This document shows, piece by piece, positions 19,975 to 30,825 of a DNA stretch of 64,000 nt. The first letter of the stretch is position 1, and each line of letters starts with the position of its first letter. The notes under the pieces are model-generated. The model was given only the letters and a program-made list of their open reading frames with translations. It made no database searches and was not told the origin of the DNA. A program made the position numbers and the translations under genes. The stretch lies in NCBI RefSeq assembly GCF_054482525.1, contig NZ_CM137006.1; one strand, given 5' to 3'.

Positions 19975-20672
19975 ACGCTTGCTCCTTTCAGTCCGAACTT
20001 AGCTTTGATTTCTGCGATCTTCGCCAGAGCCTGTGCACGATTTAGAGGTCTACCGCCCATGACAGGAAGTTGTTTTACTGGTTCAGGGATCGCCTCACCA
20101 CGGTTAATTCTCGCAGTCATATGGACAAGCTCATCTGCGGCCTTACGGCGTAATTCCGCATCAGTAAGCGCATTGGCCCGCATGTTCTGATACAGGTTGG
20201 TAACCAGCCAGTAGTGCGCGTTTGATTTCCACGGATAAGACTCCGCATCCGGATACAGGCCTCGCTTCCGGCAATACTCGTAAACCATATCAACCAGCTC
20301 GCTGACGTTTGGCAGTCCGGCGATAACGGATGCTTCTTCCCGGCACCATGCAACAAACTGCCCGGGTGATGGCAGAAATGGTCGATTCTGCCGACGGGCT
20401 ACGCGCATTCCTGCGTTAACCTGTTCCATTGTGGTGATCCCGTTTTCCCGGAAAGCCAGAACCCACTGGCGGCGGATTTCGTTCAGTTCGTTCTGGTCAC
20501 GGTTAGCCAGACTCGCCGGGAAAGTTGCCAGTAACTGGCTGAACACACCGTTGATGATCTGCGCTACCTGCTGTACCTGCGGCTTTTCGTCGTACTGTTC
20601 CGGCATGTTGTTGGCGATCCGGCGCATCTGCTCACGGTCAAAGTTAACCATCTGTGCGGCGATGTTTTTCAT
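19971..20672 (-). CDS. P: Replication protein P (DnaB helicase loader)
   Basis: 233 aa, MKNIAAQMVNFDREQMRRIANNMPEQYDEKPQVQQVAQIINGV..., reads as lambda P. Confidence 0.93.
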   Translation of the reverse strand: MKNIAAQMVNFDREQMRRIANNMPEQYDEKPQVQQVAQIINGVFSQLLATFPASLANRDQNELNEIRRQWVLAFRENGITTMEQVNAGMRVARRQNRPFLPSPGQFVAWCREEASVIAGLPNVSELVDMVYEYCRKRGLYPDAESYPWKSNAHYWLVTNLYQNMRANALTDAELRRKAADELVHMTARINRGEAIPEPVKQLPVMGGRPLNRAQALAKIAEIKAKFGLKGASV

Positions 20673-21598
20673 AGCTCCACCCCGTAAATCCAGTCAGTGT
20701 TCGTCAGGTCGAATTTTGGTTTGCCGGCTGTCACGCCAGCCTGTTGCTTGTTACGGTTGATTTCGAGTTGGGTCCACTTGTCGCGGAGTTTGGCCGGACT
20801 TAGCACGTTACCGGACCAGAAGTTGTCCTGGCATGCCCAGCGGAACAGCACGCACATGTCGCGGTGGTTACGTCCGTCACGTTCACGCATCAGGCGGATA
20901 TCGTTAGCCCACCCTGCAAAATTCGGTTTTCTGGCTGATGGCGCGATGGTCTTCACCATGTCAAACATCCACTCTGCGGCGGTCAGGTCTTCTGCTGTCC
21001 CCCACTTTCTGCCGCTCTGAATTGCAGCATCTGGTTTCACCACAGGAAGATCCTTTTCTGGTTGGTCAGAGGATTCTCCAGAATTCTCGGACGAAAAAGG
21101 TTTTATATTGTCTTTTGTTAGTTTGTCTTTTGTGTTTACCTGATTCGGGTAAACGCCTTTACCTGATTTGGGTAAACTTTTCTTACCTGATTCAGGTAAA
21201 TTTACCTCTTTCAGGTAAACTTTATTTTTCTTACCTGATTCGGGTAATGTTGACCATTCACTGACCACATTATTAATACCGATATTCCGCCCGCTCTGAA
21301 TCAAAATCCCACGCTTTACCAGAACACTTTTTGCAGCAGAACACTTGTGCGGCAATATCCCGGTCAATTCGGACAGTTGCTCGTTGCTCACCCAATCCAG
21401 TTTTTTATTAAAGCCATATGTTTTGCGCATGACAGCCAGGAAGACCAGAAGCTGGTGCTGTGTTAATCCGGCCAGCATCACAGCTTCCAGCAACTCATTT
21501 GCAATGCGCGTATAACCATCATCGAGATCTGCCACGCGCGGCTCCTTTTGTGCCGCATCCGGCACAGGAAAATTGAATATCTCAGCAGTGTTTGCCAT
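20669..21598 (-). CDS. O: Replication initiator O (lambda O-like variant)
   Basis: N-terminal domain O-like (...VADLDDGY.R......LEA...); contains the iteron array; start trimmed to first ATG (Met31); the upstream TTG/GTG alternative is not excluded. Confidence 0.8.
   Translation of the reverse strand: MANTAEIFNFPVPDAAQKEPRVADLDDGYTRIANELLEAVMLAGLTQHQLLVFLAVMRKTYGFNKKLDWVSNEQLSELTGILPHKCSAAKSVLVKRGILIQSGRNIGINNVVSEWSTLPESGKKNKVYLKEVNLPESGKKSLPKSGKGVYPNQVNTKDKLTKDNIKPFSSENSGESSDQPEKDLPVVKPDAAIQSGRKWGTAEDLTAAEWMFDMVKTIAPSARKPNFAGWANDIRLMRERDGRNHRDMCVLFRWACQDNFWSGNVLSPAKLRDKWTQLEINRNKQQAGVTAGKPKFDLTNTDWIYGVEL
21136..21248. repeat. Origin of replication iterons: five copies of TTACCTGATTCGGGTAAA-like 18-mers inside the O gene, with adjacent AT-rich stretch
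   Basis: Copies at about 21136, 21159, 21183, 21202 and 21231, each an internal inverted repeat (TTACC...GGTAA); AT-rich run at 21090-21135. Confidence 0.75.
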
Positions 21599-21684
21599 AA
21601 TTCCTCCCGCAATGAGTGTGTTACGATTTGCACCTGAAAGTCGGTTCTGTTCCCGCAGACCGACTTTCGCCATTTTTGAACCTG

Positions 21685-22224
21685 TCATATTGCCCCCAGC
21701 ATGGTGGTTACCATCGCCATCAATGGACCAGCCAGATCCGGGTCCACTCGAAACATCGACACAATGCCTTCACTCATCTCCTTCAGTTTCTGGTGGCGTG
21801 GTGCGTTGAGAATGACCGCCTGCTTTGCCTCACAGAGTTCCTTTTCCATTTCAGCCAGCCGAGCCATGAAGCTATCCTGCTCAACCAGGTGGCCGCGATA
21901 TTCCAGCGGTAGTACCGCCAGAATTGCCGGGGTCAGTTCACGCACGTTATTTCGGTATTTTTCAGAATCGAATTTGTTATCGAGGAAGCGGAACAGCTTC
22001 TGGCGTGCACGGCTGACATCATCAGGGAAATCGATAGTGCCGCCGCCCTGCTCCCGATACTCATTCACAATGAGTGTGGCAACGACATCCTGATTATCTT
22101 CAGCCGACCAGGCGCGGACGGCATCACGGATTTTTTCGTGGCCTGGCACCTGTTTTGTTTGAGAACGATTTATCACCGCAGTCGGGCTAAATCCGCTAGT
22201 CTGTTGGTATGTAAGTGGTTGCAT
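21685..22224 (-). CDS. YdaT-family protein in the cII position
   Basis: 179 aa; segment ...EYREQGGG...TPAILAVLPLEYRGHL... resembles Rac YdaT; position immediately after the cro-like gene. Confidence 0.55.
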   Translation of the reverse strand: MQPLTYQQTSGFSPTAVINRSQTKQVPGHEKIRDAVRAWSAEDNQDVVATLIVNEYREQGGGTIDFPDDVSRARQKLFRFLDNKFDSEKYRNNVRELTPAILAVLPLEYRGHLVEQDSFMARLAEMEKELCEAKQAVILNAPRHQKLKEMSEGIVSMFRVDPDLAGPLMAMVTTMLGAI

Positions 22225-22293
22225 AATTGACTCCTTTAGTTTGAATTGACTGTTAAGTTGATTGCTTATTGTTAAAGAGCGTGAAATGGAAAT

Positions 22294-22524
22294 TTAAGCT
22301 GCGTTCTTTTCGGTGTGTGGAAACAACTTCGGAAGATCCGGGCGAATCTGGTATGCCTTCACTACTCCACCAGTAGCCGTAACAATGCTGCCGACATGTT
22401 CAGGGGATACCTTTGCTTTGTTGTGAAGCCACTTATAGACGGCCTGCTGTGAAACTTCGCAGGCAGCGCCCAGTTTCTTTTGTGAACCAACGATATTGAT
22501 CGCTGTTTTGATAGCTGGATTCAT
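22294..22524 (-). CDS. Cro-like HTH regulator (YdaS type)
   Basis: 76 aa, HTH ...KKLGAACEVSQQAVYKWLHNK...; divergent from the cI-like gene. Confidence 0.7.
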   Translation of the reverse strand: MNPAIKTAINIVGSQKKLGAACEVSQQAVYKWLHNKAKVSPEHVGSIVTATGGVVKAYQIRPDLPKLFPHTEKNAA

Positions 22525-22539
22525 AACAACCTCCGTGGT

Positions 22540-22620
22540 TAATTTGAATCAAGATTAAAACTATGGTTGTTTTTAGTCAACAACCATTTTCGTTTGATGG
22601 AATAAAACCTTGGTTGTACA
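22540..22620. promoter_or_regulatory. Right operator/promoter region (OR-like) between divergent cro-like and cI-like genes
   Basis: Palindrome ATGGTTGTT-N7-AACAACCAT at 22563-22587 and related AACTATGGTT / CCTTGGTTGT half-sites; the same motif family recurs at 24335-24390. Confidence 0.5.
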
Positions 22621-22628
22621 TTTGGACT

Positions 22629-23318
22629 ATGAAAACAACACTCTCAGAAAGACTTAAAGAAGCCAGATTAGCGCGAGGCCTTACACAAAAGGCGCTTGGG
22701 GATTTGGTCGGGGTTAGCCAAGCTGCTATTCAGAAAATCGAAACAGGGAAAGCTAACCAAACAACTAAAATCGTGGAGATCGCGAACGCTTTGGGTGTGC
22801 GCGCAGAATGGTTATCTTCTGGCGTTGGAAATATGTCAGACAGTACAGTGCAACCAATACAATCAACTGTCAGCCATTCCAAATACTTTAAGATTGACGT
22901 TCTTGATATAGAAGTGAGTGCCGGGCCGGGAGTCATCAACCGTGAATTTGTAGAAGTTCTACGCTCGGTTGAGTACTCGTTTGACGATGCTCGTCACATG
23001 TTCGATGGCAGGAAGGCGGAAAATATCCGCATCATTAACGTGCGTGGTGACAGCATGTCAGGAACGATCGAACCAGGTGATCTGCTGTTCGTTGATATCA
23101 CGGTTAAATCTTTCGACGGTGATGGTATCTATGCGTTTCTGTACGACGACACAGCCCATGTAAAGCGCCTGCAAATGATGAAAGATAAGCTACTGGTTAT
23201 CTCTGATAACAAGAGCTACTCACCGTGGGACCCGATCGAGAAAGACGAGATGAACCGGGTGTTCATTTTCGGGAAGGTTATTGGCAGTATGCCGCAGACG
23301 TATAGGAAACACGGATAA
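22629..23318 (+). CDS. Prophage repressor, LexA/S24 peptidase type with N-terminal HTH
   Basis: MKTTLSERLKEARLARGLTQKALGDLVGVSQAAIQKIETG... (HTH); C-terminal ...NVRGDSMSGTIEPGDLLFVD...HVKRL... (S24 Ser/Lys motifs); trimmed to first ATG. Confidence 0.8.
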   Translation: MKTTLSERLKEARLARGLTQKALGDLVGVSQAAIQKIETGKANQTTKIVEIANALGVRAEWLSSGVGNMSDSTVQPIQSTVSHSKYFKIDVLDIEVSAGPGVINREFVEVLRSVEYSFDDARHMFDGRKAENIRIINVRGDSMSGTIEPGDLLFVDITVKSFDGDGIYAFLYDDTAHVKRLQMMKDKLLVISDNKSYSPWDPIEKDEMNRVFIFGKVIGSMPQTYRKHG

Positions 23319-23397
23319 TCAGCTGCGTGCTGATGAGGCTTTTGGGTAATGCGCTGAAAGAATTCTTTATAAAAATAACATTACGGGAAAGGCAAAA

Positions 23398-23667
23398 ATG
23401 AGTGATAAAAAACTTATAAAAAAATCAAATAACTGTGTAGATGCATATGCTGATGCATTTGGATATTCATCTTTTGGGGAAGATGACGATCGCTTAGGCT
23501 CCATATCTTTCTTTCAGCATGTTACAGAATGGGGCGCTGATGGTAGTAATGACACTGAAAACGTAAAGTACAACATTGCAACAATTCGCATGACGGAAGA
23601 TTTAATGCTTAAACTCGCTGACTTTATTCGCGATCAGCATGATAGAGCTAAAACCAATAAGTCATAA
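23398..23667 (+). CDS. Hypothetical acidic protein (89 aa), first gene of the repressor-downstream moron
   Basis: ATG start with upstream AAAGG; no family recognised; C-terminal KYNIATIRMTEDLMLKLADFIR is reminiscent of a ribbon-helix-helix strand-helix. Confidence 0.5.
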   Translation: MSDKKLIKKSNNCVDAYADAFGYSSFGEDDDRLGSISFFQHVTEWGADGSNDTENVKYNIATIRMTEDLMLKLADFIRDQHDRAKTNKS

Positions 23668-23675
23668 TATTAACA

Positions 23676-24116
23676 ATGAAACACGGTTATTACGAAGCTC
23701 CAAACCTAACTGAAAAGCTTGAACAAGCGGCAAGATCATCATCTTTGCACACTGCAGCATTTTCTCAATCAGCTGGTATGTCTGGCGGTAATGTACCTAT
23801 GCTACAATCAAGTGGTAGCGGTGGCTCTGGGAGTAATAATGTGCTTGAATCGAAAGTTGCAAAGCTTGAGTCTGATGTGTCCTATATCCGACGTGACGTT
23901 GATGAGCTTAAGACAGATGTCAAATCTATCGACAGAAACATGATCGCTGTTCTGGAGCGACTCGATTCAATAAAAGATTCACTAGCCAAAAAACCCTCCA
24001 TCGATGCTGTCGATAGAAAGATTTCAGACGCAAAGCTTGCGGTATTGCTTGGTGTTCCAGCAATCATCGCTGCAGGAACAGGTCTTTATAAGCTATCAAT
24101 GTACTTTTTTCTTTAG
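23676..24116 (+). CDS. Hypothetical coiled-coil protein with C-terminal membrane anchor (146 aa)
   Basis: 8-bp gap after upstream gene; Gly/Ser-rich linker (SSGSGGSGSNN), charged heptad-like stretch, C-terminal hydrophobic helix LAVLLGVPAIIAAGTGLY; no family recognised. Confidence 0.5.
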   Translation: MKHGYYEAPNLTEKLEQAARSSSLHTAAFSQSAGMSGGNVPMLQSSGSGGSGSNNVLESKVAKLESDVSYIRRDVDELKTDVKSIDRNMIAVLERLDSIKDSLAKKPSIDAVDRKISDAKLAVLLGVPAIIAAGTGLYKLSMYFFL

Positions 24117-24191
24117 TGCTTAAGAAACTGCTCGCCACCTTGCATTACGCAAAGCGATTTTTCATTCCCTATTACCCTTTCTTATCCATAT

Positions 24192-24222
24192 AAACCCGGC
24201 CCCAGTGCCGGGTTTTCTTTTG
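24192..24222 (+). terminator. Intrinsic terminator closing the repressor-moron operon
   Basis: AACCCGGC-CCCAGT-GCCGGGTT followed by TTCTTTT. Confidence 0.65.
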
Positions 24223-24334
24223 CCTCCCCTCATCACACAAACCGTTCAAAAAACCACCACGACCTCGCTTCAGTTATCGCTATGCGATGCAAGTCACAAA
24301 ATAAATCCATCTTAAATACAACCAGTTATATCTA

Positions 24335-24390
24335 AAACAACCAATAAAACAACTTTTGTTGTTGACGATAAAACAACTATGGTTTTAAAT
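24335..24390. promoter_or_regulatory. Left operator/promoter region (OL/pL-like)
   Basis: AACAACCAAT, palindrome ACAACTTTTGTTGT and AACTATGGTT (same motif as the OR region); candidate -35 TTGACG, 17-bp spacer, -10 TTAAAT reading rightward. Confidence 0.45.
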
Positions 24391-24583
24391 GAATTCATCG
24401 CAACAACACAACGATACGGCAATCACCTGATTCACCGTTGCGATGACCGCTTAGATCCGCAGCTTGAATTTCAGCAGGCTCCGGGGAGTGCGAGGGGTGA
24501 AGCGGACGCGTGAACGTCGGTGTGACCAGCTGAAATCAACTCAACACTTCATACCTCAGTCGCTTCAACGAGGCGACTTAGTT

Positions 24584-24874
24584 ATGACAACCGGCGGCCA
24601 TCCACCGCCTGAATACGCGCAGAAGTCTCTATATGTTCAGCAGCCCAGCTTACGGGCAGGAGTTTTTATGGTTCATCAACATTACGGAACGCAGACCGTT
24701 AATCGAGGTGCGGTCATGCCAGGAATGCTGGTCAAACACAAAGATGGTACCTGGACTGCATCAGCTAATTTACGCGGACGGCTTTATCTGCATCGCGGCA
24801 TCGAGCGCACTTATACCCGTGACTTGCTCGTGGAAGTTTTTCTCGACGGGCGCGGCAACGGTCTGAATCACTAA
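24584..24874 (+). CDS. Hypothetical early-left protein (96 aa from first ATG)
   Basis: Only ORF between pL-like promoter and gam; track ORF starts at TTG 24464 with an Arg-rich stretch (GVKRTRERR) upstream of the first ATG; no similarity to lambda N, kil or cIII recognised. Confidence 0.35.
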   Translation: MTTGGHPPPEYAQKSLYVQQPSLRAGVFMVHQHYGTQTVNRGAVMPGMLVKHKDGTWTASANLRGRLYLHRGIERTYTRDLLVEVFLDGRGNGLNH

Positions 24875-24949
24875 TCCCCTTTCCTGTTTACCTAATCAGC
24901 CTGGCATTTCGCGGGCGATATTTTCACAGCCATTTTCAGGAGTTCAGCC

Positions 24950-25246
24950 ATGAACGCTTATTACATTCAGGATCGTCTTGAGGCTCAGAGCTGGGCGCGT
25001 CACTACCAGCAGATCGCCCATGAAGAGAAAGAGGCAGAACTGGCAGACGACATGGAAAAAGGCCTGCCCCAGCACCTGTTTGAATCGCTATGCATCGATC
25101 ATTTGCAACGCCACGGGGCCAGCAAAAAAGCCATTACCCGTGCGTTTGATGACGATGTTGAGTTTCAGGAGCGCATGGCAGAACACATCCGGTACATGGT
25201 TGAAACCATTGCTCACCACCAGGTTGATATTGATTCAGAGGTATAA
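24950..25246 (+). CDS. gam: Gam, RecBCD inhibitor (short form)
   Basis: 98 aa, [21 protein letters not shown]...; reads as lambda GamS; upstream in-frame stop prevents a long form. Confidence 0.9.
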
Positions 25247-25251
25247 AACGG

Positions 25252-26037
25252 ATGAGTACAGCACTCGCAACGCTGGCTGGGAAGCTGGCTGAACGTGTCG
25301 GCATGGATTCTATCGACCCACAGGAACTGATCACCACTCTTCGCCAGACAGCATTTAAAGGCGATGCCAGCGATGCGCAGTTCATCGCATTGCTGATCGT
25401 CGCCAACCAATACGGCCTTAATCCGTGGACGAAAGAAATTTACGCCTTCCCTGATAAGCAGAACGGCATCGTTCCGGTGGTGGGCGTTGATGGCTGGTCC
25501 CGCATCATCAATGAAAACCAGCAGTTTGATGGCATGGACTTTGAGCAGGACAATGAATCCTGTACATGCCGGATTTACCGCAAAGACCGTAATCATCCGA
25601 TCTGCGTTACCGAGTGGATGGATGAATGCCGCCGCGAACCATTCAAAACCCGCGAAGGCAGAGAAATCACCGGACCGTGGCAGTCGCATCCCAAACGGAT
25701 GTTACGGCATAAAGCCATGATTCAGTGTGCCCGTCTGGCCTTCGGATTTGCGGGTATCTATGACAAGGATGAAGCCGAGCGCATTGTCGAAAATACCGCA
25801 TACACTGCAGAACGTCAGCCGGAACGCGACATCACTCCGGTTAACGATGAAACCATGCAGGAGATTAACACTCTGCTGATCGCCCTGGATAAAACATGGG
25901 ATGACGACTTATTGCCGCTCTGTTCCCAGATATTTCGCCGCGACATTCGCGCATCGTCAGAACTGACACAGGCCGAAGCAGTGAAAGCTCTTGGATTCCT
26001 GAAACAGAAAGCCACTGAGCAGAAGGTGGCAGCATGA
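25252..26037 (+). CDS. bet: Bet (Red-beta single-strand annealing protein)
   Basis: 261 aa, [46 protein letters not shown]..., reads as lambda Bet. Confidence 0.94.
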
Positions 26038-26714
26038 CACCAGACATTATCCTGCAGCGTACCGGGATCGACGTGAGAGCTGTCGAGCAGGGGGATGATG
26101 CGTGGCACAAATTACGGCTCGGCGTCATCACAGCTTCAGAAGTTCACAACGTGATAGCAAAACCCCGCTCCGGAAAGAACTGGCCTGACATGAAAATGTC
26201 CTACTTCCACACCCTGCTTGCCGAGGTTTGCACCGGTGTGGCTCCGGAAGTTAATGCTAAGGCGCTGGCCTGGGGAAAACAGTACGAGAACGACGCCAGA
26301 ACCCTGTTTGAATTCACTTCCGGCGTGAATGTTACTGAATCCCCGATCATCTATCGCGACGAAAGTATGCGCACCGCCTGCTCTCCCGATGGTTTATGCA
26401 GTGACGGCAATGGCCTTGAGCTGAAATGCCCGTTTACCTCCCGGGATTTCATGAAGTTCCGGCTCGGTGGTTTCAAGGCCATAAAGTCGGCTTACATGGC
26501 CCAGGTGCAGTACAGCATGTGGGTGACACGAAAAGATGCCTGGTACTTTGCCAACTATGACCCGCGTATGAAGCGTGAAGGACTGCATTATGTCGTGGTT
26601 GAGCGGGATGAAAAGTACATGGCGAGTTTTGACGAGATGGTGCCGGAGTTCATCGAAAAAATGGACGAGGCACTGGCTGAAATTGGTTTTGTATTTGGGG
26701 AGCAATGGCGATGA
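26034..26714 (+). CDS. exo: Exo (Red-alpha 5'-3' exonuclease)
   Basis: 226 aa, [40 protein letters not shown]..., reads as lambda Exo. Confidence 0.94.
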
Positions 26715-26893
26715 CGCATCCTCACGATAATATCCGGGTAGGCGCGATCACTTTCGTCTACTCCATTACAAAGCGAGGCTGGGTATTTCCCGGCCTTTCT
26801 GTTATCAGAAATCCACTGAAAGCACAGCGGCTGGCTGAGAAGATAAATAATAAACGGGAGGCGGTATGCACAAAGCATCTCCTGTTGAGTTAA
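26711..26893 (+). CDS. Lambda orf60a-like protein
   Basis: [46 protein letters not shown]... recalled as lambda orf60a. Confidence 0.65.
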
Positions 26894-27057
26894 GAACGAG
26901 TATTGAGATGGCACATAGCCTTGCTCAAATTGGAGTCAGGTTTGTGCCAATACCAGTAGAAACAGACGAAGAATTTCATACGTTAGCCACATCCCTTTCA
27001 CAAAAGCTGGAAATGATGGTGGCGAAAGCAGAAGCAGATGAGAGAGACCAGGTATGA
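26866..27057 (+). CDS. Lambda orf63-like protein
   Basis: 63 aa ORF in the lambda exo-xis region; recalled as orf63. Confidence 0.6.
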   Translation: MHKASPVELRTSIEMAHSLAQIGVRFVPIPVETDEEFHTLATSLSQKLEMMVAKAEADERDQV

Positions 27058-27067
27058 CAACCACTGA

Positions 27068-27349
27068 ATGCATTTTTCTGGCAGCGGGCTTCATATTCTG
27101 TGTGCTTATGCTTGCCGGCATGGGGCTTGTTCAGTGACACCTCAGCAAGAAAACGCCCTTCGCAGCATTGCCCGTCAGGCTAATTCTGAAATCAAAAAAG
27201 CCAGACAGCAGTTTCCGGATAAAAACGTCGATGACATTTGCCGTAGCGTACTAAAGAAGCACCGCGAAACGGTAACGCTGATGGGATTCACACCGACTCA
27301 TTTAAGCCTGGCGATCGGCATGTTGAACGGCGTCTTTAAGGAACGATGA
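27068..27349 (+). CDS. Lambda orf61-like protein (start uncertain)
   Basis: C-terminal part (...SVTPQQENALRSIARQANSEIKKARQQ...) recalled as lambda exo-xis region orf61. Confidence 0.45.
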   Translation: MHFSGSGLHILCAYACRHGACSVTPQQENALRSIARQANSEIKKARQQFPDKNVDDICRSVLKKHRETVTLMGFTPTHLSLAIGMLNGVFKER

Positions 27350-27447
27350 ACATGAAAAGCAAAATCATCAGGGAGCTACAGGCTCCTTTTTTATTATTCG
27401 CATTTACCCTCAAGCGTATTAACCAACAATTCAGGGATTAATGAAAG

Positions 27448-27666
27448 ATGGCAGACATCATTGATTCAGCATCAGAAATCGAAGAATTACAGCGCAATAC
27501 AGCAATAAAAATGCGTCGTCTGAACTACCAGACTGTATCCGCAACTCATTGTTGTGAGTGTGGCGATCCGATAGATGAGCGAAGACGCCTGGCTGTTCAG
27601 GGTTGTCGGACTTGTGCAAGTTGCCAGGAGGAGATCGAACTTAAGAACAAACAATGGGGACTGTGA
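27448..27666 (+). CDS. TraR/DksA-family C4 zinc-finger protein
   Basis: 72 aa with CxxC-N17-CxxC (CCECGDPIDERRRLAVQGCRTCASCQ) and acidic N-terminal helix, typical of phage TraR-like RNA polymerase-binding proteins. Confidence 0.7.
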   Translation: MADIIDSASEIEELQRNTAIKMRRLNYQTVSATHCCECGDPIDERRRLAVQGCRTCASCQEEIELKNKQWGL

Positions 27667-27713
27667 TGGCCTCAAAGCAGCAAATTTCAACATCGTCCAA
27701 CTGAGGTGTAAAA

Positions 27714-27953
27714 ATGTTCAGAATCATTTTTCCTAACACCTGGTACGTCGACCATCACGGCACTCCCTGCAAAATCCTGCGTTCTACCCACAACAAAGTT
27801 CACTACATCCGAAAAGGCAGAACATGTATCGCCAGCATGTTCCGCTTTAATCATGACTTTGAACCTGTTAGTAAAGTGGAATCAGAGCGGATAGCCGAAG
27901 AGATCGATACAGCAGAACACATTAAGAAGTTACGCGCCATACGCAGGAAATAG
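27714..27953 (+). CDS. Hypothetical protein (79 aa)
   Basis: ORF with ATG start between the TraR-like gene and xis; no family recognised. Confidence 0.4.
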   Translation: MFRIIFPNTWYVDHHGTPCKILRSTHNKVHYIRKGRTCIASMFRFNHDFEPVSKVESERIAEEIDTAEHIKKLRAIRRK

Positions 27954-28092
27954 AAAAATTGATAAATTCAATACTGCATTTCTCAGCATTAAATTTATCT
28001 CTATGACCAGTCAAGAGATGTACCTGCCATGAGCTTAATATCATGTCAGATATATCGGTCACAAACTCCCTCAGCAGCTAAGAGGAGGACAA

Positions 28093-28329
28093 ATGTCTCG
28101 ACTAATCACTTTACAGGACTGGGCTAAAGAAGAATTTGGGGACTTAGCACCAAGTGAGCGAGTTCTGAAAAAATACGCGCAAGGGAAAATGATGGCCCCA
28201 CCCGCTATAAAAGTTGGTCGCTACTGGATGATTGACCGAAATTCCCGTTTTGTAGGAACGCTTGCAGAACCGCAACTCCCAATAAACGCAAACCCAAAAC
28301 TCCAACGGATAATCGCTGATGGCTGCTAG
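28093..28329 (+). CDS. xis: Excisionase (Xis-like)
   Basis: 78 aa; N-terminus MSRLITLQDW... parallels lambda Xis MYLTLQEW...; AGGAGG RBS; 3' end overlaps int start. Confidence 0.7.
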   Translation: MSRLITLQDWAKEEFGDLAPSERVLKKYAQGKMMAPPAIKVGRYWMIDRNSRFVGTLAEPQLPINANPKLQRIIADGC

Positions 28330-29461
28330 ACCCCGATCTCACAAAATCTCTATACCCAATTTATATTGCAAATTAGATAAGCGAACCGGAAAGGTATATT
28401 GGCAATACAAACATCCACTATCCGGTCGTTTTCATAGCTTAGGAACTGATGAGAATGAAGCAAAACAAGTTGCTACTGAAGCAAATACCATTATTGCTGA
28501 ACAACGTACCCGACAAATATTAAGCGTCAATGAGCGTCTAGAAAGAATGAAAGGCAGGCGCTCAGACATTACGGTGACAGAATGGCTTGATAAATATATT
28601 TCTATCCAGGAGGACAGGCTGCAACATAATGAACTAAAACCCAACTCCTATCGGCAAAAAGGTAAACCCATTCGTCTTTTCCGTGAGCATTGTGGAATGC
28701 AACACCTCAAGGATATTACCGCACTTGATATTGCCGAAATAATTGATGCTGTAAAGGCTGAAGGTCATAACAGGATGGCGCAAGTCGTGAGAATGGTGTT
28801 GATCGACGTCTTCAAAGAAGCACAACACGCAGGACATGTTCCGCCAGGATTTAACCCAGCGCAGGCAACAAAACAACCGCGAAATCGAGTAAACCGCCAA
28901 AGATTATCACTGCCCGAATGGCAGGCAATATTTGAAAGCATAAGCAGACGGCAGCCCTATTTAAAATGCGGCATGCTACTTGCTCTTGTTACTGGACAAC
29001 GTTTAGGCGATATCTGCAATTTGAAATTCTCTGATATATGGGACGACATGTTGCACATTACTCAGGAAAAAACCGGTTCAAAACTTGCTATTCCGCTTAG
29101 CCTGAAATGCGATGCTCTGAATATTACCCTTCGTGAAGTTATATCTCAGTGCAGGGATGCTGTTGTTAGTAAATATCTGGTCCATTACCGTCACACTACC
29201 TCTCAAGCAAACAGAGGAGACCAGGTTTCTGCAAATACTCTTACAACGGCTTTTAAAAAGGCCAGGGAAAAATGTGGCATAAAATGGGAGCCAGGAACTG
29301 CGCCCACATTTCATGAGCAGCGATCTCTGTCAGAACGGTTATATCGGGAACAGGGTCTGGATACGCAAAAGTTGTTAGGTCATAAATCCAGAAAAATGAC
29401 CGACCGATACAATGATGATCGTGGTAAAGACTGGATTATCGTAGATATCAAAACAGCATAG
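28319..29461 (+). CDS. int: Tyrosine integrase, lambda Int family
   Basis: 380 aa; motifs shared with lambda Int (RSHK near N-terminus, ...VTGQRLGDICNLKFSDI..., ...TFHEQRSLSERLY..., ...LLGHKS...RY.DDRG..W); adjacent to the attachment junction. Confidence 0.9.
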   Translation: MAARPRSHKISIPNLYCKLDKRTGKVYWQYKHPLSGRFHSLGTDENEAKQVATEANTIIAEQRTRQILSVNERLERMKGRRSDITVTEWLDKYISIQEDRLQHNELKPNSYRQKGKPIRLFREHCGMQHLKDITALDIAEIIDAVKAEGHNRMAQVVRMVLIDVFKEAQHAGHVPPGFNPAQATKQPRNRVNRQRLSLPEWQAIFESISRRQPYLKCGMLLALVTGQRLGDICNLKFSDIWDDMLHITQEKTGSKLAIPLSLKCDALNITLREVISQCRDAVVSKYLVHYRHTTSQANRGDQVSANTLTTAFKKAREKCGIKWEPGTAPTFHEQRSLSERLYREQGLDTQKLLGHKSRKMTDRYNDDRGKDWIIVDIKTA

Positions 29462-29471
29462 AAAATAGCCA

Positions 29472-29509
29472 GTTTTGGGGAAGGGTTTTGGGGAAAGTTT
29501 TGGGGAAGA
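29472..29509. repeat. Three tandem GTTTTGGGGAA(A/G) repeats, candidate arm-type Int binding sites of the att junction
   Basis: Direct repeats at 29472, 29485 and 29497 between the int stop and the icd terminator hairpin. Confidence 0.4.
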
Positions 29510-29528
29510 TTTTACATCATCATAAAAC

Positions 29529-29551
29529 AACGGGCGTGTTATACGCCCGTT
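29529..29551. terminator. Hairpin terminator shared by convergent int and icd
   Basis: ACGGGCG-TGTTATA-CGCCCGT with T-rich flank on the icd (minus) strand. Confidence 0.5.
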
Positions 29552-29574
29552 TCAATATTTAACACATGTAGTGA

Positions 29575-30825
29575 TTACATATTCTTGATGATCGCGTCAC
29601 CAAACTCTGAACATTTCAGCAGTTTAGCGCCTTCCATCAGACGTTCGAAGTCATAGGTTACAGTCTTGGCGTTGATCGCGCCTTCCATACCTTTAACAAT
29701 CAGGTCTGCGGCTTCAGTCCAGCCCATATGGCGCAGCATCATCTCAGCGGAGAGAATAATAGAGCCTGGGTTTACTTTGTCCTGACCGGCATATTTCGGC
29801 GCAGTACCGTGGGTGGCTTCAAACAGGGCGCATTCGTCACCGATGTTTGCGCCTGGGGCGATACCGATACCGCCGACCTGTGCAGCCAGAGCGTCAGAAA
29901 TGTAGTCACCGTTCAGGTTCATACAGGCGATAACATCATATTCAGCCGGACGCAGCAGAATCTGTTGCAGGAATGCATCAGCAATCACGTCTTTAATGAC
30001 GATCTCTTTGCCGGTATTCGGATTTTTAACTTTCAGCCACGGGCCGCCGTCGATCAGTTCACCGCCAAACTCTTCACGCGCCAGCTGGTAGCCCCAGTCT
30101 TTAAACGCGCCTTCGGTGAATTTCATGATGTTGCCTTTGTGAACCAGGGTCACAGAGTCACGATCGTTAGCAATTGCGTATTCGATCGCTGCACGAACCA
30201 GACGTTTGGTGCCTTCTTCAGAACACGGCTTAATACCGATGCCGCAATGTTCCGGGAAGCGAATTTTCTTCACACCCATCTCTTCACGCAGGAATTTAAT
30301 CACTTTCTCAGCGTCGGCAGAGTCTGCTTTCCATTCGATACCCGCATAAATGTCTTCCGAGTTTTCACGGAAGATAACCATATCGGTCAGTTCAGGGTGT
30401 TTAACCGGGCTTGGGGTGCCCTGGTAGTAACGTACCGGACGCAGGCAGATATAGAGATCCAGCTCCTGGCGCAGGGCAACGTTCAGAGAGCGAATACCGC
30501 CACCAACCGGAGTGGTCAGCGGGCCTTTGATGGCAACGCGATATTCACGAATCAGATCAAGGGTTTCAGCAGGTAGCCAGACATCCTGACCATAAACCTG
30601 TGTGGATTTTTCACCGGTGTAAATTTCCATCCAGGAGATTTTACGCTCGCCTTTATAGGCTTTCTCGACTGCAGCGTCGACCACTTTCAGCATGGCTGGG
30701 GTTACATCTACACCGATTCCATCACCTTCAATGTAAGGGATAATCGGATTTTCAGGAACGTTGAGTTTGCCGTTTTGCAGGGTGATCTTCTTGCCTTGTG
30801 CCGGAACAACTACTTTACTTTCCAT
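29575..30825 (-). CDS. icd: Isocitrate dehydrogenase (NADP), 3' end contributed by the prophage
   Basis: 416 aa, [38 protein letters not shown]..., ends ...FGDAIIKNM. Confidence 0.95.

Follow-up and report, generated by a model that had tools for sequence, protein, structure and literature searches.

The window analyzed in this work, 64,000 nucleotides (nt) of contig NZ_CM137006.1 (NCBI RefSeq assembly GCF_054482525.1), contains two clusters of a short dyad-symmetric motif on either side of a repressor operon (positions 22,525 to 24,390), and these dyads are very probably the operators bound by cI and Cro in the OR and OL control regions of a prophage. Region 22200-24600 is 99.9% identical to several complete Escherichia coli chromosomes; the window corresponds to an E. 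coli lambdoid prophage and, judged by its sequence, this is the immunity (immC) region of that prophage, lambda-like in its build. Its order is cro on the minus strand, OR, and then, on the plus strand, cI, two cargo genes, a terminator, OL with the leftward early promoter PL, and kil-gam-bet-exo, so that the plus strand of the window is the leftward direction of lambda. The reading of the dyads as operators draws on their exclusivity to OR and OL, on their covariation with the recognition helices of cI and Cro, and on their selective conservation. The repressor itself can be classed as a 434-repressor relative whose specificity differs, embedded in a promoter arrangement like that of lambda.

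Operator candidates and predicted promoters at OR and OL

Every string quoted in the original prediction is found in its place. The sequence AACTATGGTT has only two copies in the window, at 22559 and 24375; the 9-nt inverted repeat AACAACCAT / ATGGTTGTT has its arms at 22563-22571 and 22579-22587, with 7 nt between them, and ACAACTTTTGTTGT is located at 24349-24362. These motifs resolve into one 14-bp dyad, ACAAC-N4-GTT(G/T)T, which most likely constitutes the binding unit (ACAAC-N4-GTTKT). The refined pattern ACAACNNNNGTTKT is matched exactly at four sites of the 64 kb (0.29 expected), each of them within OR or OL, a count that is post hoc because the pattern was derived from these same four sites. 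The k-mer and BLAST tests are not post hoc. The 93-bp OL segment and the 104-bp OR segment have 23 seven-mers and 13 eight-mers in common, the maximum among controls being 9 and 6 for some 3,150 other segments of the window and 8 and 5 for 256 GC-matched ones, and OR and OL are mutual best non-self BLAST matches in the window (45 nt, 78% identity, E = 0.001). The resemblance between OR and OL (25-33% GC) is beyond chance, and the possibility, raised at the outset, that the motifs might occur at similar density throughout the prophage is not borne out, the refined pattern being found nowhere else in the window. Copies of one dyad operator thus occur at OR and again at a distant OL beside the leftward early promoter, about 1.8 kb away. 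The candidate operators, and the promoters predicted around them, are as follows.

22557-22570, minus strand: OR1, ACAACCATAGTTTT, exact pattern match, inside the PR spacer and abutting its -10 box
22580-22593, plus strand: OR2, ACAACCATTTTCGT, weaker dyad, between OR1 and OR3
22604-22617, minus strand: OR3, ACAACCAAGGTTTT, exact pattern match, inside the PRM spacer, centre at -18.5
24349-24362, plus strand: OL2, ACAACTTTTGTTGT, perfect dyad, exact match on both strands, touching the PL -35 box
24373-24386, plus strand: OL1, ACAACTATGGTTTT, exact match, in the PL spacer with a 2-nt overlap with the -10 box
22552-22580, minus strand: predicted PR, TTGACT (22580-22575), N17, TAATCT (22557-22552), read by hand
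22594-22622, plus strand: predicted PRM, the maintenance promoter, TTGATG, N17, TACATT, read by hand
24362-24390, plus strand: predicted PL, TTGACG (24362-24367), N17, TTAAAT (24385-24390), read by hand

The dyad centres are spaced 23 and 24 bp apart at OR and 24 bp at OL, and the PR and PL promoter/operator modules are laid out alike. Transcription from PR is predicted to start near 22545, about 21 nt ahead of the cro ATG, and from PL near 24397. The -10 box of PRM ends 6 nt before the cI ATG, and the cI mRNA is therefore predicted to be leaderless or nearly so. OR2 abuts the -35 box of PR on one side and that of PRM on the other, with its centre at -42.5 from the predicted PRM start, and by analogy with lambda OR2 it is probably the site from which PRM is activated; its score with a position weight matrix (PWM) is the fifth best in the window, OR2 itself having been among the PWM training sites. 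We infer the PR, PRM and PL assignments from hand reading and from positional conservation in relatives: a promoter-like pair at the position of PR is also present in heteroimmune and Klebsiella loci, the spacing between PRM and the cI ATG is the same in Klebsiella phage ST101-KPC2phi6.1, and the heteroimmune locus L004 has TTGATA-N17-TATTAT in exactly the same position as PL relative to the conserved leader.

Further sequences were considered as operators and set aside. A third OL site at 24318-24331 (plus strand), ACAACCAGTTATAT, falls outside the PWM top 30, and in ST101-KPC2phi6.1 its left half (ACAACCA) is kept and its right half is not, which makes the site doubtful; another at 24337 is either not above background in score or not conserved, and is not claimed. 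A one-mismatch operator-like sequence, ACAACCTCCGTGGT (22526-22539), lies over the ribosome-binding site and start codon of cro, 31 bp from the centre of OR1. The heteroimmune type is also motif-like at this position, where conservation is confounded by the ribosome-binding site. As an operator, 22526-22539 scores at PWM background, and the matching candidate in the heteroimmune type, being not above background or not conserved, is likewise unclaimed.

Recognition helices, relatives and immunity specificity

The cI protein combines a 434-like helix-turn-helix (HTH) domain, with recognition helix QAAIQK, and an S24 autopeptidase domain of the self-cleaving LexA type, whose residues can be assigned by motif in the translation (Ala98-Gly99, Ser142 and Lys179; Ala-Gly, GDSM, KR). 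Its gene and cro are divergent around the short control region, and the recognition helices of the two proteins are nearly identical (VSQAAIQKI in cI, VSQQAVYKW in Cro). The best PDB match of the cI N-terminal domain is the 434 repressor (1per/2or1, E = 5e-10, residues 5-68). The original prediction had proposed a comparison with operator sequences of known immunity groups; for 434, the likeness of the protein domain is not matched by the operator sequences. In the annotated 434 genome there are six operators, all 14-bp dyads, five of which fit ACAA-N6-TTGT; the half-sites here are A(A/C)AAC, and OL2 is the only one of five sites that fits the 434 consensus. Assignment to the 434 immunity type was rejected on the helix (QAAIQK vs QQSIEQ) and on operators that are mostly off the 434 consensus. 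In terms of the 434 contact residues (Gln28, Gln29 and Gln33), the glutamine equivalent to Gln28 is kept together with A at operator position 1, Gln29 is replaced by Ala and operator position 2 is degenerate, and Gln33 is replaced by Lys; a literature search on these contact residues returned nothing usable. These changes might plausibly be linked to the altered specificity.

Many records annotate cI as a 251-amino-acid protein starting at an ATG at 22563, inside OR1 and the PR spacer. This longer form is probably a mis-annotation; the 229-amino-acid start at 22629 is favoured because it fits the 434 alignment, the starts of heteroimmune cI genes and the predicted PRM.

Six isolated phages carry the same cI N-terminal domain (PhiR26_1, PhiR34_1, PhiR47_2, PhiR5_1, Turner and IdasGreatGrand). 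Together with four E. coli contigs bearing a 75%-identical variant of the cargo, they carry, within the loci fetched, these four exact sites and no further ones. In the homoimmune E. coli phages OL1 reads ACAACTATAGTTTT, a change confined to the central 4 nt. The heteroimmune phages PhiR30_1 and Perceval match the prophage described here in the PL leader, the terminator, the 85-nt block that precedes OL and the C-terminal domain of cI; what is different in them is OR, a module of about 95 bp at OL, and the N-terminal portion of both cI and Cro. The recognition helices of these phages are VAQPTIWRL in cI and VAQPTVWRW in Cro, and at both OR and OL they carry a motif of the CAATA-N8-TATTG type, with zero 8-mers in common with the type described here. 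Helix, OR motif and OL motif thus swap together in heteroimmune relatives. The k-mer test, run on loci representing four immunity types, placed the closest counterpart of OR just upstream of the start of the PL leader each time.

Heteroimmune relatives fall into three apparent operator families: CAATA-N8-TATTG (18 bp) in PhiR30_1, Perceval and L014 (L004 1450-1560 and 3850-3960); a GAACT...GTTC type in L011; and a AAAGTAAAG...TTTAC type in L012 and L013, where the repressor has no S24 domain.

Klebsiella phage ST101-KPC2phi6.1 (L022 in our set) provides the most informative comparison. Its cI N-terminal domain is 61% identical, its cI and Cro recognition helices are identical, its backbone is diverged and its cargo is rexA/rexB. 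The half-site bases of the five operators are kept at 50 of 50 positions, as against 118 of 168 (70%) of other intergenic positions (Fisher p = 5e-7), and the central 4 nt vary. Site by site, OR1 has identical half-sites and a different centre, OR2 and OL1 are identical throughout, and the half-sites are conserved in OR3 and in OL2, which reads ACAACTATTGTTGT. Such a combination of kept half-sites and variable centres is the pattern expected of a dyad operator contacted at its outer bases.

The same comparison bears on an alternative definition of the binding unit, namely that the functional element is the 25-bp palindrome ATGGTTGTT-N7-AACAACCAT singled out in the original prediction, or direct repeats of TAAAACAAC, and not the 14-bp dyads. 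The perfect 9-nt inverted repeat does exist, OL has a similar GTTGTT-N8-AACAAC, and TAAAACAAC occurs there three times in direct order. Yet the spacer of this palindrome, which contains the -35 box, is 7 nt at OR and 8 nt at OL, OL2 is by itself a perfect 14-bp dyad, and OR3, also a 14-bp dyad, lacks the partner that a 25-bp unit would need; the Klebsiella phage, moreover, conserves the 5+5 outer bases of each 14-mer with variable N4 centres, and does not conserve the third copy of TAAAACAAC (24333), and 14-bp dyads are also what the 434 repressor, the closest relative with a solved structure, binds. We therefore regard the larger unit as quite improbable, and see in the palindrome not a single operator but the inner halves of OR1 and OR2, which face each other across the -35 box of PR. 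It is more improbable still that the likeness of OR and OL stems only from shared promoter elements and AT-rich composition, with no repressor sites: both regions are indeed AT-rich and their best alignment covers the -35 boxes and spacers of PR and PL, but GC-matched controls have at most 8 common seven-mers against 23 observed, OR3 carries the motif while serving a different promoter on the other strand, the motifs change with the recognition helices of cI and Cro while promoter positions stay fixed, and half-site conservation extends past the promoter hexamers.

Several points nonetheless weigh against reading the 14-bp dyads as operators in this promoter layout. OR2 is a weak match, with ACGAA as one of its half-sites, and neither the PWM scan nor the comparison with ST101-KPC2phi6.1 yields a convincing third OL site. 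A consensus promoter scan flagged none of PR, PRM and PL, whose -10 boxes match the consensus at only 3 to 4 of 6 positions; they go unflagged because these boxes are weak (3/6 for the PR -10 box, 8/12 for PRM overall). The four exact sites are present in all 10 fetched loci that have the helix and in none of the 11 that do not, but the homoimmune loci are nearly identical and this agreement is not independent; independent support comes mainly from one Klebsiella phage and from the heteroimmune swaps. Similarly, the OR and cI N-terminal region (22525-22760) is carried by 1,520 of 5,426 complete E. coli genomes (28%) and the OL module (24296-24395) by 1,509, each with two plasmid copies, and these figures, which agree with a tight linkage of OR and OL, are counts only, not paired per genome. 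Overlap with the hand-read promoters, exclusivity, helix covariation and selective conservation in the Klebsiella phage support an OR...OL cassette of non-lambda specificity, as originally proposed.

Cargo genes, PL leader and the predicted switch

The genes around the operators were assigned as listed below. The divergent cro-like and cI-like genes and the terminator placed by the original prediction between the repressor-cargo operon and the second motif cluster are all confirmed.

20669-21688, minus strand: replication gene O
21685-22224, minus strand: gene for a YdaT-family protein, in the cII position
22294-22524, minus strand: cro-like gene, 76 amino acids, YdaS/P22_Cro-type HTH (open reading frame list; Pfam YdaS_toxin, E = 4e-17; phrog_35)
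22629-23318, plus strand: cI repressor gene, 229 amino acids, HTH_3 and Peptidase_S24 (Pfam)
23398-23667, plus strand: cargo gene 1, 89 amino acids, acidic product
23676-24116, plus strand: cargo gene 2, 146 amino acids, phrog_3556
24192-24215, with T-run to 24225, plus strand: intrinsic terminator of the cI-cargo unit, the analogue of t-imm (terminator scan)
24584-24874, plus strand: kil (phrog_294 Kil), with gam, bet and exo downstream on the same strand

The terminator, a stem CCCGGC...GCCGGG followed by TTTTCTTTT, was graded strong by the scan; it lies between the end of cargo gene 2 (24116) and the second motif cluster, and is kept in every relative irrespective of the cargo. Between it and OL, an 85-nt block (24216-24300) with a small palindrome in it, ATCGCTATGCGAT (24277-24289), is conserved across heteroimmune E. 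coli relatives; in the Klebsiella phage an open reading frame (ORF) on the minus strand takes the place of this block.

The two cargo genes are present in about 170 complete E. coli genomes and have no Pfam, PADLOC or NCBIfam match, and they show no sequence relationship to known exclusion or defence proteins, RexA/B and BstA included. The family of cargo gene 1 is narrow and enterobacterial; the AlphaFold 2 model of its product gives only weak fold matches, and this product may be a small acidic beta3-alpha protein. Cargo gene 2 encodes a coiled coil with a C-terminal hydrophobic helix and has 108 homologue clusters, a few of them named hemolysin XhlA, and it may specify a membrane protein that is XhlA-like and tail-anchored, with a coiled coil. 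Among homoimmune phages, the slot that runs from the end of cI to the terminator is occupied by genes annotated as GevT/GevA, HipA/HipD, a lipoprotein or rexAB, or is empty. This variable content is in line with a hotspot of mosaicism already known for the interval from cI to the PL region, in which rexAB and bstA are located (PMC8585504, citing Degnan 2007).

The cargo pair lies on the same strand as cI, between the repressor stop codon and the operon terminator; the terminator scan found no terminator-like site between the cI stop codon and cargo gene 1, and its only strong candidate before OL is that at 24192. In P22-like prophages of Salmonella and Leclercia the same pair occurs immediately downstream of mnt, the gene of the Mnt repressor, with gene 16 on its other side; P22 carries sieA in this slot. 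The first of the two ORFs overlaps the stop codon of mnt in three P22-like prophages, and homology between the E. coli and Salmonella P22-like copies sets in only some 30 nt before the ATG. In a Serratia prophage, cargo gene 1 is paired with a different second gene. These loci behind mnt and in Serratia are L009 2251-3223, L021 3762-4689 and L019 3748-4297. In Citrobacter-type prophages a homologue of cargo gene 2 follows three different cI types, its partner genes there being unrelated to cargo gene 1.

On this evidence, the cargo would rather likely be read from PRM. The original claim that the two genes are transcribed with the repressor from the maintenance promoter is thus well supported, if indirectly, and stops short of proof. 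The main competing explanation, which we consider possible but rather unlikely, holds that the cargo is an autonomous moron whose own promoter replaces or supplements transcription from PRM. The cargo is AT-rich (36-45% GC, vs about 50% in its flanks), and two features of the locus count in favour of this explanation and against sole read-through: the 79-nt AT-rich gap ahead of cargo gene 1 contains TATAAA and leaves room for a cargo promoter, and a promoter-like match, ATGATA-N18-CATAAT (23639-23668), lies in the 3'-terminal part of cargo gene 1, shortly before cargo gene 2. This is, however, the only sigma-70-like scan match in the region, below the 5.1 expected by chance; the P22-like homology, starting some 30 nt before the ATG, has room for a ribosome-binding site only; the overlap with the mnt stop codon likewise argues against a separate promoter, and the terminator is part of the backbone and not of the cargo. 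Lambda rexB has its own promoter, P-LIT, a possible parallel. The match at 23639-23668 may recall this internal promoter, or may equally be a product of chance.

Since the cargo occurs behind different repressors, its homology starts about 30 nt before the ATG and no terminator precedes 24192, a broader proposal can be entertained, albeit tentatively and as one we would hold to be less probable than its negation: that the pair is a promoter-less, portable lysogeny module that can sit behind any maintenance repressor (cI or Mnt) and constitutes an undescribed superinfection-exclusion or abortive-infection system. Separately from the cargo, the operators would be the code of one of the commonest immunity types among E. 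coli prophages.

Downstream of OL, the PL leader (24397-24583, about 190 nt) runs up to kil without an N-like gene. Homo- and heteroimmune relatives match it at 94-99% identity, with homology starting exactly at the predicted transcription start, and it opens with a hairpin, CATCGCAAC...GTTGCGATG (24396-24444). Even distant prophages of the Citrobacter type retain blocks of this leader. Its RNA fold z-score is -2.6. A search of 21500-25500 against Rfam (E up to 1) gave only a chance microRNA match and no nut, put or other known RNA. BLAST of the leader against positions 22000-30000 of HK022, which is sparsely annotated and in which the presence of putL is unconfirmed, and against the rest of the window revealed no similarity. 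The leader may be an attenuator or an antitermination RNA.

Taken together, these elements suggest the following switch. Both cI and Cro are predicted to bind the 14-bp dyads ACAAC-N4-GTT(G/T)T. In the lysogen, cI at OR1 and OR2 would shut PR (cro, the cII-like gene, O and P), and cI at OL1 and OL2 would shut PL (kil, gam, bet and exo), while cI at OR2 would probably activate PRM. From PRM, a leaderless cI message would read through the promoter-less cargo pair to the terminator at 24192-24215, and OR3 would limit PRM when cI is high. Upon induction, SOS-triggered cleavage of cI would free PR and PL, and Cro would then take the same sites. We infer, in this scheme, the promoter assignments, cooperativity, activation from OR2, any looping between OR and OL, and the read-through into the cargo.

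Significance and comparison with lambda, 434 and P22

The analysis reveals nothing new on how prophage switches work. The architecture is that of the textbook; it is the specificity that appears undescribed. In the phage collection the immunity type is represented only by the six isolated phages, all of them recent, and no classical phage there has this repressor domain. A full-text literature search with six operator strings returned no relevant paper, and searches on GevT/GevA and on the PhiR phages turned up no description of this immunity region. What the present work provides is a probable operator code, ACAAC-N4-GTTKT, and a promoter layout for an immunity type without a characterised representative. 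The code can help to predict homoimmune pairs of prophages and phages, yields a corrected start for annotated cI genes and could be drawn on in designing inducible or orthogonal switches. In addition, the immunity type offers a natural comparison set, made up of 434-repressor relatives with an altered recognition helix in which the half-sites have changed along with the helix, and the cargo pair, found downstream of both cI and Mnt, two repressors unrelated to each other, can reasonably be considered for a new role in exclusion.

The immunity region of lambda has the order cro - OR1-3 - cI - rexA - rexB - t-imm - OL1-3/PL, and the region described here has the same gene order and strands. With the candidate operators and predicted promoters taken as assigned here, both have three operators between divergent PR and PRM, with centres about 23-24 bp apart, one of them in the PR spacer and another abutting both -35 boxes, at about -42 of PRM; in both, cI is an S24 autopeptidase and PRM probably gives a leaderless cI message. 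The two differ in that the candidate operators here are 14-bp dyads and those of lambda are 17-bp, and in that only two clear OL sites were found. Unlike in lambda, Cro is YdaS/P22-Cro-like, a YdaT-family protein occupies the cII position, the ORF list and Rfam gave no N gene or nut-like element after PL, and the cargo is unrelated to RexA or RexB. With 434, in turn, the region has in common a 14-bp operator with outer 5-nt arms that begin A-x-A-A and a variable 4-nt centre, as well as a recognition helix common to cI and Cro; the annotated OR1 of 434 lies downstream of the PR -10 box, whereas the operators here are placed relative to their predicted promoters as in lambda. Finally, the cargo is found between cI and the terminator just before OL/PL, as in lambda, a parallel that is stated in PMC8585504. 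Like rexAB in lambda, bstA in BTP1 and the sieA slot of P22, the cargo lies directly downstream of the maintenance repressor, on the same strand and before the terminator.

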